This document shows positions 42,954 to 50,620 of a stretch of DNA of 64,000 bases, in pieces (positions within the stretch are counted from its first letter, which is position 1; every line of letters begins with the position of its first letter). A model generated the notes under the pieces. It ran no database searches, was not told the origin of the DNA, and worked only from the letters and a program-made list of their open reading frames with translations. The translations under genes and the position numbers were made by a program. Source of the DNA: an uncultured Bifidobacterium sp. (GTDB lineage Bacteria; Actinomycetota; Acidimicrobiia; Acidimicrobiales; Ilumatobacteraceae); contig CAYRUT010000004.1 of the NCBI GenBank assembly GCA_964427545.1, positions 3,638-67,637 of the forward strand, read 5' to 3'.

Positions 42954-43637
42954 GTGCGCGCCATGACCGACCAACGCGACCGTATCCAGTCTCTACTCAC
43001 GCTGGCGAGACACCCCAACACCCCCCAGGCAGAGGCAGAGACAGCCCTCGCACTCGCATCGAAGCTGATGCAGAAGCACGGTCTGTCGGCCAGCGACGTG
43101 GCCGATGCCGCACCTGTCGACGACACCGAGGTCGTCATCCGTCGTTTCATGGTCAGCGGTCTGTACCGCGTGCGCCGCCAGAACTTGTTGTGGCACATCG
43201 CGAGACTCCATTCGTGCGACGGGTACCGCGACGACGACGAAGACGACTCGTGCATAGTGGTTCTCTACGGCCGCGACAACGACATCACCGCCGCGTACAC
43301 GCTCTTCTGTGCCGCCGACATTCTCGGTGCACGTCTCCTGCCGCGCGGCGACCGGTCGTGGCGCACCACGTGGTGGAACGGTTTCATCAACGGCATCGTC
43401 GATGCTCTCGGTTCGGCACGCAACGAGTTCATCAGCGAGAGCCCGGGTTCGGGTCTCGTGCTGGCCGACCGCATGAAGCGCGCGCAGCGTGAGATGCGCG
43501 CAACAGCGCCGCCGTTGACCGGCAGTCGCTCGTACACCGACACCTCGTCGGGTGCGTATGCAAGCGGCCGGGCTGCCGGGCGCGGATTCTCCACCGGTGG
43601 TCGCTCGTTCACCAGCGGGGTGCGCGGGGAACTGTGA
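42954..43637 (+). CDS. DUF2786 domain-containing protein
   Basis: 227 aa with N-terminal 'RIQSLLTLARHPNTPQAEAETALALASKLMQKHGL' (DUF2786 helix pair) and a Gly/Ser/Arg-rich tail. Confidence 0.7.
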   Translation: MRAMTDQRDRIQSLLTLARHPNTPQAEAETALALASKLMQKHGLSASDVADAAPVDDTEVVIRRFMVSGLYRVRRQNLLWHIARLHSCDGYRDDDEDDSCIVVLYGRDNDITAAYTLFCAADILGARLLPRGDRSWRTTWWNGFINGIVDALGSARNEFISESPGSGLVLADRMKRAQREMRATAPPLTGSRSYTDTSSGAYASGRAAGRGFSTGGRSFTSGVRGEL

Positions 43638-44113
43638 CCCCCGAACTCGACCATCTCCTCGATCGCGCGCGCACGCGGGCACTCGAGTACGGCCGTGGCT
43701 CGCACGAACAGGCACTCACCTACGCCTGCGAAGACATTGCCGACGACCTGGTCGGCACGCGTGAGATCGCCGAACACGACGTCGGCAGGTTGCTCGAGCG
43801 CATCTGCCACACCGAAGACCTCGATGTTCCCCGACTCGAGTTCGCCCGTCAGCGTTCGACATCACTTGCCGCGACAATCATCGACGACAACACCATCTGT
43901 GTGTTCGGCCGCCGCACCACGTTGTCGACACTTCTCCACGAGATCGCACACACCTCGGTGCGCACGCCCGGGCACGGCGTCATGTTCCGCGACGAACTCG
44001 TGCGACTCACCCGCAGGCACCTCTCGGTCGAGTACGCCGCACTCCTGCACTCACTCTTCGTGGGGCTCGGTCTCGATGCGGCGCCGTGGCCGGCGAGCGC
44101 CCACCGTCGTTGA
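43634..44113 (+). CDS. Putative HExxH metallohydrolase (SprT-like / TIGR04338-like)
   Basis: GTG at 43634 overlaps the upstream stop (GTGA). 159 aa. 'TLLHEIAHTSVRTPGHGVMFRDELV' gives HExxH plus a downstream His. Confidence 0.6.
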   Translation: MTPELDHLLDRARTRALEYGRGSHEQALTYACEDIADDLVGTREIAEHDVGRLLERICHTEDLDVPRLEFARQRSTSLAATIIDDNTICVFGRRTTLSTLLHEIAHTSVRTPGHGVMFRDELVRLTRRHLSVEYAALLHSLFVGLGLDAAPWPASAHRR

Positions 44114-47123: not shown

Positions 47124-47735
47124 GTGCTCACGATCGTGGAAGAAGTCAAACGCTCGCTCGCCGAGCAGACATCGTCCCTCTCGTGGCGACGGGTCACGAT
47201 GCCCGGGCTCGCTGTTGCGTGGGTCGGCATGAACGTGCCGACAGTCGAGACCGGCGGCAGGCCGTGGGTGTGGGAGGTCGTCACTCCCGACCAGTACGAC
47301 TCGTCGGCAAGACTGCGCAACGACCCGCTCGTTCTTTCGGTTGCGCACGACGTGGTGATCGCAGAGGTGCTGCACGACGACCACACGGCGCCCGTCGTGC
47401 GGATGCAGGTCCCGGTGCGGGAGACCCCCGGTTCCGTCTCGATTCCGAGGGGTCCGGGCCGGGGAACCCCATGGTCGTTGCGCATGGAGACCGGCTGGTC
47501 GGTCGGGGCACTCGGCACCGCCGCCCAGTGCTGGATCGACAGGGAAACCCCGGGGAACGTGCGGCTGCAGACCCCGGTCGAGCCGCATTCGCCCCACCGG
47601 CTCTACCAGCTTCACCCCTCGATCAATATCGAGTCGGCGGCGTTCGATCACCTGCTTACACTCGGTCTCGATGAGGCAGCCGTCGTCACTTCCCTTCTCA
47701 GCCAGGTTCACGAGGCACTCCAGCCATACAGGTGA
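47124..47735 (+). CDS. Hypothetical protein, no recognisable family (Trp-rich, 203 aa)
   Basis: GTG start. GC3-rich host-like codon usage in this frame, whereas the overlapping 434-aa antisense ORF is Arg-rich shadow. It ends 15 nt before the next gene. Confidence 0.5.
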   Translation: MLTIVEEVKRSLAEQTSSLSWRRVTMPGLAVAWVGMNVPTVETGGRPWVWEVVTPDQYDSSARLRNDPLVLSVAHDVVIAEVLHDDHTAPVVRMQVPVRETPGSVSIPRGPGRGTPWSLRMETGWSVGALGTAAQCWIDRETPGNVRLQTPVEPHSPHRLYQLHPSINIESAAFDHLLTLGLDEAAVVTSLLSQVHEALQPYR

Positions 47736-47750
47736 CCTGCGGGTGGTGCC

Positions 47751-49232
47751 GTGATCACCACCTTTGCCACCACACTCTCGGCGATCGATTCGTCGGAGAA
47801 AGAACGTCTCGCTCTCATCGACCTCGTCACCGACTGGCAGATGGAGAACTACCCGCTCGACGACAATGCCCCGGGCATCACCGTGCGCGTGCGGGAAGGG
47901 TCCGACGACCCGGTCTTCCGTGTGACGATCACGCACACGCAGTCGGGTCGGCCGTTCGCGCAGACAATCACCGCCACCGTCGTCACCATCGCGAACCGAC
48001 TCACGTTCGACCTGCGCATCGTCGCGACCCCGACAACAGTGCGTGTCGCGCCGTATGTTGCCCTGCCGTTGCCGCCCCATGTGGTGCGTCTGTTGTCCCA
48101 GGTTCTCAACTCGGTGCAGATGGAAGACGCCAACGAGTACGTCACGACACACACGAAACACATCGCGACCAGGGAACAGGGCGAGCACGTGGCCGGTTTG
48201 ATCCTGGCGCCGGGGCGTGCGCTTCCGGTTCTGATCGAGTTCACCGACCAGACGAACGTCGGCGCCCCGTTGCTCGCCGAGTCGGTCGGCCCCCTGACCG
48301 GACTCGTGCACCAGTTCCGGTTCACCACGCGGGACGCACTCGACGGGTACGTCGCACTCACCGGTGAGGCCCTCGTCGACATCGGCAACGTGGTCGTGCA
48401 CTGGGCGAGCCCGCAACGACCGCTGGTGTACCGGCGCGCCGACATCCGTGCGGGCCAGGAACTCGCTTTTCTGCAGCGCCTCACCACCACCGTCACCGAG
48501 GTGGCGTCACGTGCGCTGAGTGCACCGCGCATCCCGCCCCCGCCGCGTTACGACGACGACCAGCTCGTCGAGCAGACCAGGGAATCGCGCGAAGGCGGCA
48601 ACGACGACGAGGAACAGTCGATGCTGATCGAGCAACTCGAGGCGACGGTCGAGGACATGCAGGCGGCGCTCGCCGATGCCGACCGCATCATCGCCGAACA
48701 ACGCTCGCAGATAGAGCAGAAGGGCGGACAACTCGACGAGTTGATCCTGCGGAACGTGTCTCTCGAGATACAGGCGGGCAGCACCGCGCAGGTACGCGCC
48801 GTCTCGTCGATGAAGGAAGCTCTGCGTCTCGCGCAACAACACTGCCCGCAACTCGTCTTCCACGAGCGCGCCATCGAATCGGGAGAGAGCCTCGAGGGGC
48901 CCGAACCCGTGAGTGTTCTCCAGGATCTCGTGCGTCTGAACGAGGTGGCACGTGCATGGCGGGCCGGCGAGATCTCCGGAACCAGCATCGGACTCGCATG
49001 CCGACAGATGGGTCTCGACTTCGCCCCGCGCATCTCCGACAACGCACGGCAGAAGTTCGAGGAGGACTACGTCATCACCTGGCGCGGGGAGACCGTGCGT
49101 GCCGAGGCACACCTGCGACGCGGTCGCAAGGTGCATCTCGTGCGCATCCACGTGTACTTCGACCAGGACACCCAAGAGGTTGTCGTCGCCTACATCGGCC
49201 GGCACCTGCGCGACAAGTCCAGCCAGTCGTAA
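47751..49232 (+). CDS. Hypothetical multidomain coiled-coil protein (493 aa), no recognisable family
   Basis: GTG start after GGGTGG. Strong GC3 bias. Layout: N-domain, then 'PRIPPPPRYDDDQLVEQTRESREGGNDDEEQS', then the heptad-like stretch 'MLIEQLEATVEDMQAALADADRIIAEQRSQIEQKGGQLDELI', then a C-domain ending 'RGRKVHLVRIHVYFDQDTQEVVVAYIGRHL'. Confidence 0.6.
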   Translation: MITTFATTLSAIDSSEKERLALIDLVTDWQMENYPLDDNAPGITVRVREGSDDPVFRVTITHTQSGRPFAQTITATVVTIANRLTFDLRIVATPTTVRVAPYVALPLPPHVVRLLSQVLNSVQMEDANEYVTTHTKHIATREQGEHVAGLILAPGRALPVLIEFTDQTNVGAPLLAESVGPLTGLVHQFRFTTRDALDGYVALTGEALVDIGNVVVHWASPQRPLVYRRADIRAGQELAFLQRLTTTVTEVASRALSAPRIPPPPRYDDDQLVEQTRESREGGNDDEEQSMLIEQLEATVEDMQAALADADRIIAEQRSQIEQKGGQLDELILRNVSLEIQAGSTAQVRAVSSMKEALRLAQQHCPQLVFHERAIESGESLEGPEPVSVLQDLVRLNEVARAWRAGEISGTSIGLACRQMGLDFAPRISDNARQKFEEDYVITWRGETVRAEAHLRRGRKVHLVRIHVYFDQDTQEVVVAYIGRHLRDKSSQS

Positions 49233-49243
49233 TCTCGTAGTCT

Positions 49244-50620
49244 GTGCGAATGACCCGACGACGAGTGATTCGCCTTGTCGCCGGTGCGGTCGCGGTGTTC
49301 ATCGTCGTCACCATGTTCTCTGCCGGCCGGTACGTGCTGGCCAACTCGGGTGACCCGGTGCAGCAGAGCCTCGCATCGTGGGCGCGCAACAAAGGACTCG
49401 GCGGCATCGTCGACCAACTCGAGGCGTGGCTGCACAACGACCCACCGGCCGTTGCCCCCGCCGACACTCTCGCCCTTGTCCCCGTCGACACCGAACCGCC
49501 CGCCACCACCGTCGCACCCGGCACCACGGTGAGCACCGGCACCGTTGCACCCGGGCCCACCACCACCCTGCCCGTCACCTCGCCGACGGGTGCAGCTCGC
49601 CAGACCAACAGGGTGCGCACAACGAGTTGCCCGAACGTCGGCACGACCACAACCGTTGCCACGACGACCACGGTCGAGAACACCACGACGACTGTGCCTC
49701 CCACGACCACAACCACCACCTCGTCGACGCTGCCCGGCGAGACCACAACCACCACGACCACCACGACGACACTTCCCGCCCGACCGACGGACATCGCACC
49801 GCAGGTCGCACCGCAACTGCGTGGCGAAGGTGAATGGGTGGTGATCGCACGGGCGCGGTCGAAGCCGGCCATCTTTGCGACCTCGATGCGTCCGTTGTGG
49901 TGTTACGGCTCGGTGGTGGCGACCATGGCCACCTACGACCCCAACAAGGTGCGTGCCGCACTGTTCAACGGCACCGAGGTTCCCGGCGGTCGCGGCTGGA
50001 GGAACTCCTCGAAGATCAGGGGCGCCGCCGAGAAGTACCTCGTCGGGAGTTTCAACGGTGGCTTCCGCTTCGAGCACAACCCGGGCGGTTACATCACCGA
50101 GGGACGCACGGTGAAACCGATGCGCAAGGGTTACGCGACGTTCGGCATACGCGCTGACGGCACCAGCACCGTCGGCGTGTGGGGCAGGGACATGACCGAC
50201 GACGAGGAGTGGTTGTCATTGCGGCAGAACCTGCCGCCGCTGCTGTACAACGGCAAGGTCGTGTACCACACGTACGACAAGGTCGACTGGGGCAAGGACC
50301 ACGACAACAAGCTCTACAACTTCCGCTCGGCGGTGTGCCTCCGCACGGACGGCCTCATCATGTACGTGGCGGTGGGAAAGGTGAACGTTGCGATGCTTGC
50401 CGACACCCTGGTCGTGGCCGGTTGCTCGACGGCCATGGAACTCGACATCAACGGCACGTGGCCGTACTTCGCGGTGTACACGAAGTTCGGCACGACATCG
50501 CGTGCCGGTCGCACCATCGACACACGCATGGGCGATCCGCAACGACACCTGAACGGCTCGACGAAGGACTTCATCGGGCTCTTCGACGCAGCAACCCTCC
50601 CCCCGGGAGTGGTTCGCTAG
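49244..50620 (+). CDS. Membrane-anchored phosphodiester glycosidase-like (DUF2233) protein with a poly-Thr linker
   Basis: 458 aa, starting at GTG 49244 or ATG 49250. N-terminal TM 'LVAGAVAVFIVVTMF' and a Thr/Pro linker. The C-domain 'VGSFNGGFRF...FRSAVCLRTDGLIMYVAVG...STAMELDINGT' resembles DUF2233/NAGPA. Confidence 0.55.
   Translation: MRMTRRRVIRLVAGAVAVFIVVTMFSAGRYVLANSGDPVQQSLASWARNKGLGGIVDQLEAWLHNDPPAVAPADTLALVPVDTEPPATTVAPGTTVSTGTVAPGPTTTLPVTSPTGAARQTNRVRTTSCPNVGTTTTVATTTTVENTTTTVPPTTTTTTSSTLPGETTTTTTTTTTLPARPTDIAPQVAPQLRGEGEWVVIARARSKPAIFATSMRPLWCYGSVVATMATYDPNKVRAALFNGTEVPGGRGWRNSSKIRGAAEKYLVGSFNGGFRFEHNPGGYITEGRTVKPMRKGYATFGIRADGTSTVGVWGRDMTDDEEWLSLRQNLPPLLYNGKVVYHTYDKVDWGKDHDNKLYNFRSAVCLRTDGLIMYVAVGKVNVAMLADTLVVAGCSTAMELDINGTWPYFAVYTKFGTTSRAGRTIDTRMGDPQRHLNGSTKDFIGLFDAATLPPGVVR
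49640..49771 (+). repeat. In-frame low-complexity ACC/ACG/ACA (poly-Thr) tract
   Basis: Encodes 'GTTTTVATTTTVENTTTTVPPTTTTTTSSTLPGETTTTTTTTTT'. It is imperfect codon-level repetition with no spacer/repeat periodicity. Confidence 0.8.

Follow-up and report, generated by a model that had tools for sequence, protein, structure and literature searches.

A diverged HEC-07-type protein with a putative RelE-like endoribonuclease domain, its orphan partner and a nested reading frame in freshwater Acidimicrobiia

HEC-07 is one of nine Hma-embedded candidates and is represented in PADLOC by the models PDLC04158-04161 (Payne et al., bioRxiv 10.1101/2024.01.29.577857); seven of the nine, HEC-07 among them, cut plaquing in E. 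coli, the exceptions being HEC-01 and HEC-09 (bioRxiv 10.1101/2024.01.29.577857). According to its description, the HEC-07 protein is made up of an AdoMetDC-like domain, a thioredoxin-like domain that lacks CxxC, and a RelE-family, HP0892-like C-terminal domain with a conserved histidine close to the C-terminus (H543 in the protein that was tested; bioRxiv 10.1101/2024.01.29.577857). A second described relative is NsnC, which together with NsnA (ParB-DUF262) and NsnB (ABC ATPase and DUF3696) makes up the Menshen system, and for whose C-domain (PB-BECR1) a BECR fold and an H-R-H triad have been described (PMC12065111). According to the literature, the structures of HP0892 and YafQ can be superposed with the C-domains of HEC-07 and NsnC (bioRxiv 10.1101/2024.01.29.577857; PMC12065111), and toxicity has been shown for a related BECR lineage, which an immunity protein next to it neutralises (bioRxiv 10.64898/2026.08.28.747851). 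We analyse here a pair of adjacent genes, called A and B, which lies in a 64,000-nucleotide stretch of contig CAYRUT010000004.1 (this whole stretch is called the window). As judged from profile comparisons, B belongs to the HEC-07 family, which is itself already known, recent and barely studied, having so far been validated as one protein in one preprint. What is new is the obligate orphan partner A, the fixation of the pair in a core genome, and a small open reading frame (ORF), the bridge ORF, which is nested in the end of A and stops on the start of B. The hosts are dominant and largely uncultured freshwater Actinobacteria, and little is known of how they resist phages and control their growth. 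Their lineage can be regarded as a natural experiment, in which the same effector architecture has become part of the core genome and is accompanied by an obligate partner and a testable expression-control element.

Protein B and its C-terminal domain

Searches of Pfam, NCBIfam, PHROGs and the PDB sequences returned no match for B. In PADLOC, the HEC-07 model PDLC04161 matches residues 279-489 of B (E=6.1e-15, 53 bits; profile positions 325-551 of 553), a match which covers only the C-terminal ~40% of the model, with the consequence that PADLOC's own coverage cut-offs might not call B. Three further HEC-07 models match at E=4e-7 to 6e-4, and three NsnC models match the C-domain of B at E=5e-10 to 2e-5. 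A first-pass annotation of this DNA, made from the letters alone, had seen no assignable motif in B; this is true of the first four libraries but not of PADLOC. With a profile built from 26 B homologues, 1159 relatives were retrieved from a set of 1.84 billion representative proteins. Beyond the close family, these relatives are mostly 500-550 amino acids long and are aligned over profile positions ~40-490, and those which we sampled match HEC-07 models almost from end to end, with E values down to 1e-57. When the B family was compared by hhalign with 47 HEC-07-type proteins, the alignment extended over the full length (E=1.4e-57, 481 columns); the N-terminal 255 residues alone were aligned with a Prob of 99.1% (E=5e-19, 250 columns), and the N-terminal subdomains taken singly with E=4e-7 and E=3e-13. 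Hence, we concluded from these profile alignments that B is a highly diverged, full-length homologue of HEC-07. The description of the locus as an orphan and as an undescribed system therefore has to be given up as far as B is concerned.

B and HEC-07 have in common their length class (~490-550 amino acids), homology over the full length, a histidine near the C-terminus (H485 in B, at the place of H543) and the order of the domains, namely two N-terminal alpha/beta domains, a long helix and a C-domain described as RelE-like. They differ in that B is very diverged, the PADLOC models directly matching its C-terminal half only, and in their genetic setting. HEC-07 is a single gene, embedded in Hma systems and in variable contexts without any A-like neighbour, whereas B has the obligate upstream gene A and the nested coupling ORF, and its locus shows a conserved core-genome synteny restricted to freshwater Acidimicrobiia.

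Both A and B are real genes under strong purifying selection. Between the window and its closest relative (locus L004, 92% identity), which was our reference, the ratio of nonsynonymous to synonymous substitution rates (dN/dS) is 0.049 for A and, for B, 0.094 over residues 1-255, 0.065 over residues 256-345 and 0.017 over residues 346-493. The N-terminal part of B thus evolves fastest, its dN exceeding that of the C-domain about 5-7-fold. Third codon positions vary freely between relatives, and this freedom of the synonymous sites rules out conservation of the 434-amino-acid ORF on the opposite strand, which is a shadow ORF, as had been supposed.

The AlphaFold2 model of B (mean predicted local distance difference test score, pLDDT, 83) reproduces the anatomy first read from the sequence: an N-domain, a linker, a coiled coil or helix, and a C-domain. 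In the model, the N-terminal region consists of one subdomain with the order beta-alpha-beta4-alpha (residues 1-121) and a second one with the order beta-alpha-beta-beta-alpha-beta-beta-alpha (residues 136-255). A disordered linker, Pro-rich and acidic, follows at residues 256-284 (pLDDT below 50 at 270-284), then one single long helix (285-342), and finally an alpha+beta C-domain (354-490) in the order beta-alpha-alpha-(helical insert)-five strands. H454 stands at the start of the third-from-last strand of this domain, while H485, which belongs to a G-x-H motif, immediately follows the last strand. The N-terminal region is presumed to be the sensor or regulatory part. The top 50 matches of the whole model of B, searched by Foldseek against PDB and BFVD, contain nothing of RelE type; they are weak matches to the N-domains only (DcrB, YwmB, TBP-like, PsbP and EagT6, E ~4e-3) and, as they fill the list, the search is uninformative for the C-domain. 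The fold names given to the N-region of HEC-07, AdoMetDC-like and thioredoxin-like, were not recovered for B by this search either, which yielded weak TBP-like and DcrB-like matches there.

The C-domain carries the residues which are expected of the superfamily. Among 142 superfamily representatives, Y440 and H454 are each conserved in 100% of the sequences, G458, D471 and G483 in 92% and R465 in 85%, while the position of H485 is occupied by His in 73% and by Lys in 27%. All seven residues are invariant in the 26 homologues which make up the B family. The superfamily residues are kept and the dN/dS of this domain is the lowest in B, a pattern which fits an active enzyme. The C-domain is thus a putative RelE/YafQ-like endoribonuclease, likely active, and the assignment is transitive, because it passes through the homologous HEC-07 and NsnC domains, for which fold comparisons have been published. 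The signature flagged in the first-pass annotation, AH454LRRG...R465...GRH485L, does hold the superfamily-invariant His, Arg and His, and its likeness to RelE can be retained in this sense; its likeness to ParE found no support.

In the model of B, the strand order appears to match that of YafQ, of which H63 and the final '...TGTH87' would parallel H454 and H485. The domain of B has no sequence-profile similarity to YafQ and no RelE-type match in Pfam; unlike the RelE, YafQ and HP0892 toxins, it measures ~140 amino acids with extra helices, is fused to ~345 amino acids of other domains and comes without an antitoxin of the RelB/DinJ type. With NsnC, B shares a homologous C-domain in which His, Arg and His stand at the superfamily-conserved positions (compare the H-R-H triad of PB-BECR1), but the inactive-PIN N-domain of NsnC is absent from B, and neither an NsnA nor an NsnB gene is near it. 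A three-gene Menshen locus was looked for, and no DUF262 gene and no NsnB-type ATPase adjoin B. Among the relatives retrieved by the B profile, the same C-domain is also fused to unrelated N-termini, for example in a 772-amino-acid TPR-repeat protein, or makes up stand-alone proteins of 140-200 amino acids. Being found on varied N-termini or alone, it behaves like a mobile, shuffled effector module which extends beyond HEC-07 and Menshen. Relatives with other fusions or with a stand-alone C-domain are P0313, P0348, P0384, P0324, P0331, P0381 and P0382.

The partner A and the bridge reading frame

Protein A is an orphan in sequence and in fold, and is restricted to one lineage. It has no match in Pfam, NCBIfam, PHROGs, PADLOC or the PDB sequences, so that for A the absence of an assignable motif still stands. 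A fold search had also been proposed for both proteins: B gave the weak N-domain matches reported above, and the AlphaFold2 model of A, which is of fair confidence (pLDDT 77.5, predicted template modelling score 0.69), resembles nothing in PDB (best E=0.5). The 129 homologues of A all come from Acidimicrobiia-type metagenome-assembled genomes (MAGs). They align and are conserved from residue 5 on, which supports the start giving 203 amino acids, and they share the motif GRPWVWEVVTP, which is invariant, as well as a C-terminal helix, which is conserved. The protein was rightly called Trp-rich: it has 7 Trp in 203 residues, 6 of which are invariant across 27 homologues. We considered that A might be a paralogue of the N-domain of B and rejected this (hhalign Prob 0.2%).

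When one genome per species was scanned, B turned up in 84 genomes, all of them freshwater Acidimicrobiia MAGs (Ilumatobacteraceae / acIV). The linkage of A and B could be assessed in 61 loci, the window included, where the identity of B is 39% or more and the sequence extends upstream of B. In 61/61 of them the next gene upstream of B is A, and the extra loci reached from homologues of A have the same arrangement; the co-occurrence of the two genes, which had been proposed as a check, is therefore strict.

The two genes moreover share their reading frame in 61/61 loci: the spacer is always a multiple of 3, although it takes 12 different lengths (15, 18, 21, 24, 27, 30, 33, 36, 48, 51, 54 and 66 nucleotides), and the gaps of the extra loci (24, 30 and 30 nucleotides) are multiples of 3 as well. 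Neighbouring gene pairs of the same loci served as controls, and their frame differences 0/1/2 are distributed as 30/4/10 (B and the downstream NAGPA gene) and as 7/23/7 (the gene of a hypothetical 159-amino-acid protein and a nitroreductase gene). Read-through or a fusion of A with B was rejected as the cause of the shared frame, since three stop codons are used at the end of A (TGA in 28, TAG in 19 and TAA in 14 loci) and extra in-frame stops are common: about 24 of the 61 spacers have one or two of them, the other 37 having none. The peptides which the spacers would encode are not conserved. A conserved overlapping ORF in any of the other five frames was examined too, and the +1 frame alone fits all the loci.

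This +1 frame contains, in 61/61 loci, the bridge ORF, of 27-43 codons, which runs through the spacer and stops on the start codon of B; the stop overlaps this start as xTGA in 58 loci and as TAxTG in 3. Codon 183 of A (NAT) and the G of codon 184 together supply its ATG, which lies 62 nucleotides ahead of the end of A. Codon 183 is GAT, AAT or CAT, with T as third base in 57/57 sequences. The peptide encoded by the bridge ORF is not conserved. When synonymous codons and spacers were shuffled, the +1 frame was open by chance in 12-57% of the trials, depending on the locus. Taking the 61 loci together, we concluded that it is a +1-frame translation path ending on the start codon of B which is under selection, and not its peptide, as far as aligned loci can tell. 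A spacer varying in threes across 61 loci constitutes direct comparative evidence of selection acting on the translation of a small, non-conserved ORF.

Slightly upstream of the ATG, the 8-mer CTTACACT is invariant in 47 distinct sequences. L178 is encoded by CTT and T179 by ACA without exception, and L180 by CTC in 54/57 sequences, while the neighbouring codons use all their synonyms; at codons 178, 179 and 183 the third base has an entropy of 0. The frozen sites (47655-47673 in the window) also yield an ATGA in the +1 frame, which is invariant. ACA is an unusual Thr codon to be fixed. A possible hairpin at 47652-47679 would pair the 8-mer with the region of the ATG, 87% of the cells being paired. 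A compensatory change is seen in two pairs, and the core pairs are invariant; as these never vary, covariation is weak. With a folding z of -1.0 in addition, the hairpin is weakly supported as the main cause of the frozen synonymous sites. The 8-mer could be the 5' arm of this hairpin, or it could be a CUU-ACA +1 slip site. CUU-ACA resembles known +1 slip sites, namely CUU-UGA in prfB and CUU-AGG in Ty1. Ribosomes could enter the +1 frame either by internal initiation or by frameshifting.

We infer from its position that the bridge ORF serves the translational coupling or the gating of the synthesis of B. In hok/mok, an overlapping small ORF controls the translation of the toxin, and ATGA stop-start coupling is likewise known. 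The likeness to both lies in a small ORF with a non-conserved peptide that stops on the start of a toxin-like gene, and by this analogy the translation of the small ORF would govern that of B. The bridge ORF differs from hok/mok in that it lies, in another frame, within the 3' end of a partner gene which itself encodes a protein, and no antisense RNA is known for its locus.

Function of the pair: proposed mechanism and rival readings

Four observations have to be explained: the membership of B in the HEC-07 family, its catalytic-type residues, the strict linkage of A and B, and the constraint on their frame together with the bridge ORF. We propose, as a reading which is probable though by no means strongly so, that B is an auto-inhibited ribonuclease (RNase) of HEC-07 type, that its N-domains and A regulate it, that its synthesis is tied to the end of A, and that it cleaves RNA and arrests growth in phage defence or under stress. 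B would be made in its inhibited form. Its fast-evolving N-domains and the lineage-specific A, which may be a regulator, an inhibitor or a co-sensor of the RelE-like RNase, would hold the RNase off or would sense the trigger, presumably a phage infection or another insult. Once activated, the His-Arg-His site would cut RNA, and translation and growth would stop. As A lies upstream in the same frame and as the bridge ORF ends on the start of B, ribosome traffic at this start would be tied to the end of A: ribosomes would be delivered to the start of B, or cleared from it, only together with translation of the end of A. By analogy, such a coupling would follow the logic of toxin modules in which the toxin must not be made alone. 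The first-pass annotation had suggested a toxin-like sensor/effector module, possibly directed against phages, which was a good reading in that the C-domain of B belongs to the family of domains that end HEC-07 and NsnC; its alternative, a structural or cytoskeletal function, found no support.

Several results speak against the mechanism just proposed. Concerning the enzyme, the profile of the C-domain had no match among the PDB sequences, a Pfam scan of 42 C-domains at E<=10 gave no RelE-type match, hhalign of the C-domain with a 92-sequence YafQ alignment (the query of which is identical in sequence to PDB 4ML2) gave a Prob of 0.1%, and a RelE-like fold was not recovered for B in the whole-protein Foldseek lists. 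Concerning the partner and the coupling, library and fold searches revealed no recognisable antitoxin or DNA-binding feature in A, there is no Shine-Dalgarno sequence before the +1 ATG, and the energy of the hairpin is ordinary. Moreover, HEC-07 works as a single gene, and there are relatives of B without A: a distant Acidimicrobiia clade (26-34% identity, ~470-510 amino acids), still matching HEC-07 and NsnC, lacks it. This means that A is not a universal antidote. Lastly, the pair is in no defence island, is not mobile, is absent from viral contigs and is vertically inherited, and vertical inheritance in a core genome is unusual for defence or toxin-antitoxin genes.

This last point leads to a different reading, possible but rather doubtful in our opinion, in which the pair is a domesticated housekeeping module: a HEC-07-type gene would have been fixed in the Ilumatobacteraceae and would serve, together with A, in stress shut-down, dormancy or the quality control of RNA or ribosomes. 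The genes around the pair are metabolic. NAGPA and metallo-beta-lactamase-fold genes are found downstream of B in the relatives, and a sulfatase, an alpha/beta hydrolase, a nitroreductase, DUF2786 and an ABC transporter usually upstream of A; these neighbours recur from 92% down to 39% identity. The window has the surroundings which had been read there, with the minus-strand alpha/beta hydrolase and sulfatase genes divergent from the pair and NAGPA downstream. The possibility of a defence island was thus answered by a conserved core-genome synteny; the absence of mobile-element genes was borne out, no sign of mobility being seen at the A-B loci. Relatives of A and B were not found in the viral contigs of IMG/VR, and a phage origin was rejected on this ground. 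Strict vertical inheritance, purifying selection which is strong on every part, and a dedicated, equally conserved partner with an elaborate expression-control element agree with domestication, the partner and the control element suggesting a long-term integration in host physiology. The distant clade of B, which lies between a DEAD-box RNA helicase gene and a sigma-70/ECF-like gene, may represent another fixed context. On the other side, anti-phage activity is the sole experimental datum for the family, the N-domains evolve ~5-7 times faster than the effector domain, as is expected of a sensor engaged in an arms race, and the core status is drawn from synteny across loci and not from presence in all genomes of the clade. 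On these observations, B may serve phage defence or may have been domesticated.

A more specific form of domestication, and a yet more speculative one, is that an RNase of the HEC-07 lineage, RelE-like, was domesticated for good in the streamlined freshwater acIV Actinobacteria, with a fold-orphan partner and an undescribed device, the bridge ORF, and that it acts as a translation-sensing switch of growth or dormancy rather than as a mobile immune gene. In such a switch the bridge ORF must end on the start codon of the RNase, so that the spacer could change in steps of three only, as it does in the 61 loci.

That the pair is a classical type II toxin-antitoxin system, in which A would bind and block the RelE-like domain of B and would autoregulate the operon, is unlikely. 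The partner is upstream and the toxin downstream, with a tight spacing and a coupling element; A and B strictly co-occur; and immunity proteins encoded next to BECR toxins are able to neutralise them. However, A, with its 203 amino acids, has neither a DNA-binding nor a known antitoxin fold, B is a multidomain protein of 493 amino acids and not a RelE of ~90, relatives of B exist without A, and the pair is vertically inherited and not mobile. Finally, a dead C-domain which only binds RNA or ribosomes in a non-nucleolytic role, the shared frame being the relic of a fusion or serving a read-through A-B fusion, would account for A and B being always in frame and for the 37 spacers without a further in-frame stop, but we hold it to be very improbable, as the superfamily-invariant His, Arg, His, Tyr and Asp are all kept in B, A ends with TGA, TAG or TAA without preference, the ~24 spacers with extra in-frame stops are still multiples of 3, spacer peptides are not conserved, and no fused homologue of ~700 amino acids appeared in either homologue search.

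Coordinates, neighbours and minor observations

The features of the locus are collected in Table 1. The positions of the two ORFs, the gap between them and the GGGTGG before B are as the first-pass annotation had placed them, and its claim that both + frames are coding is confirmed by a dN/dS which is low in every part.

Table 1. Positions in the window of the genes A and B, of their parts and of the adjoining NAGPA gene
Feature	Position	Strand	Remarks
Gene A	47124..47735	+	ORF, GTG start, 203 amino acids, Trp-rich
Invariant 8-mer CTTACACT in A	47655..47662	+	Codons L178 CTT, T179 ACA, L180 CT-
Bridge ORF	47671..47754	+	+1 frame; 27 sense codons, MRQPSSLPFSARFTRHSSHTGDLRVVP, then stop; TGA overlaps B start (GTGA)
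A-B spacer	47736..47750	+	15 nucleotides; carries Shine-Dalgarno-like GGGTGG before B
Gene B	47751..49232	+	ORF, GTG start, 493 amino acids
B residues 1-255, two N-terminal subdomains	47751..48515	+	AlphaFold2 model; hhalign to HEC-07 N-region
B residues 256-342, linker and long helix	48516..48776	+	AlphaFold2 model
B residues 346-493 and stop, C-terminal putative endoribonuclease domain	48786..49232	+	PADLOC, conservation, AlphaFold2
Y440, invariant	49068-49070	+	Conservation
H454, candidate active-site residue	49110-49112	+	Conservation
R465, candidate active-site residue	49143-49145	+	Conservation
H485, candidate active-site residue	49203-49205	+	Conservation
NAGPA (phosphodiester glycosidase)	49244-50620	+	Starts 11 nucleotides after B stop

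Given the gap of 11 nucleotides between the stop of B and NAGPA, co-transcription of NAGPA with A and B may occur. The NAGPA protein has an N-terminal hydrophobic segment and a long Thr/Pro-rich linker of low complexity (TTTVATTTTVENTTTTVPPTTTTTTSS...). Some relatives (L003 and L087) have a DUF885 gene inserted after B and before NAGPA. A scan for promoters and terminators turned up nothing relevant, and the scans of the whole 64-kb window for tRNA genes and for Rfam families gave no tRNA gene and no family at the gathering threshold.

The distant clade of B comprises the loci L058-L064, L066, L068-L071, L073, L075, L076, L079 and L083 (for example L060, 5929-7461). A DEAD-box RNA helicase gene lies upstream in at least seven of them (L058-L060, L062, L068 and L070, and L071 from a coarser look), and in L058-L060 a gene for a sigma-70/ECF-like protein of 196 amino acids comes after B.

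Further upstream in the window (43634-44113, + strand), a conserved protein of 159 amino acids is encoded, which has a HEIAH motif (HExxH, metalloprotease-like) and no match in Pfam or PADLOC; in related loci its gene follows directly the DUF2786 gene. Eleven loci (L005, L007, L009, L019, L024, L032, L036, L043, L046, L063 and L072) bear titles with 'uncultured Bifidobacterium sp.' or 'Bifidobacterium breve', and two (L075 and L083) bear the title 'Ferrithrix thermotolerans'. On loci of the Acidimicrobiia type, these titles look like taxonomy mislabels.

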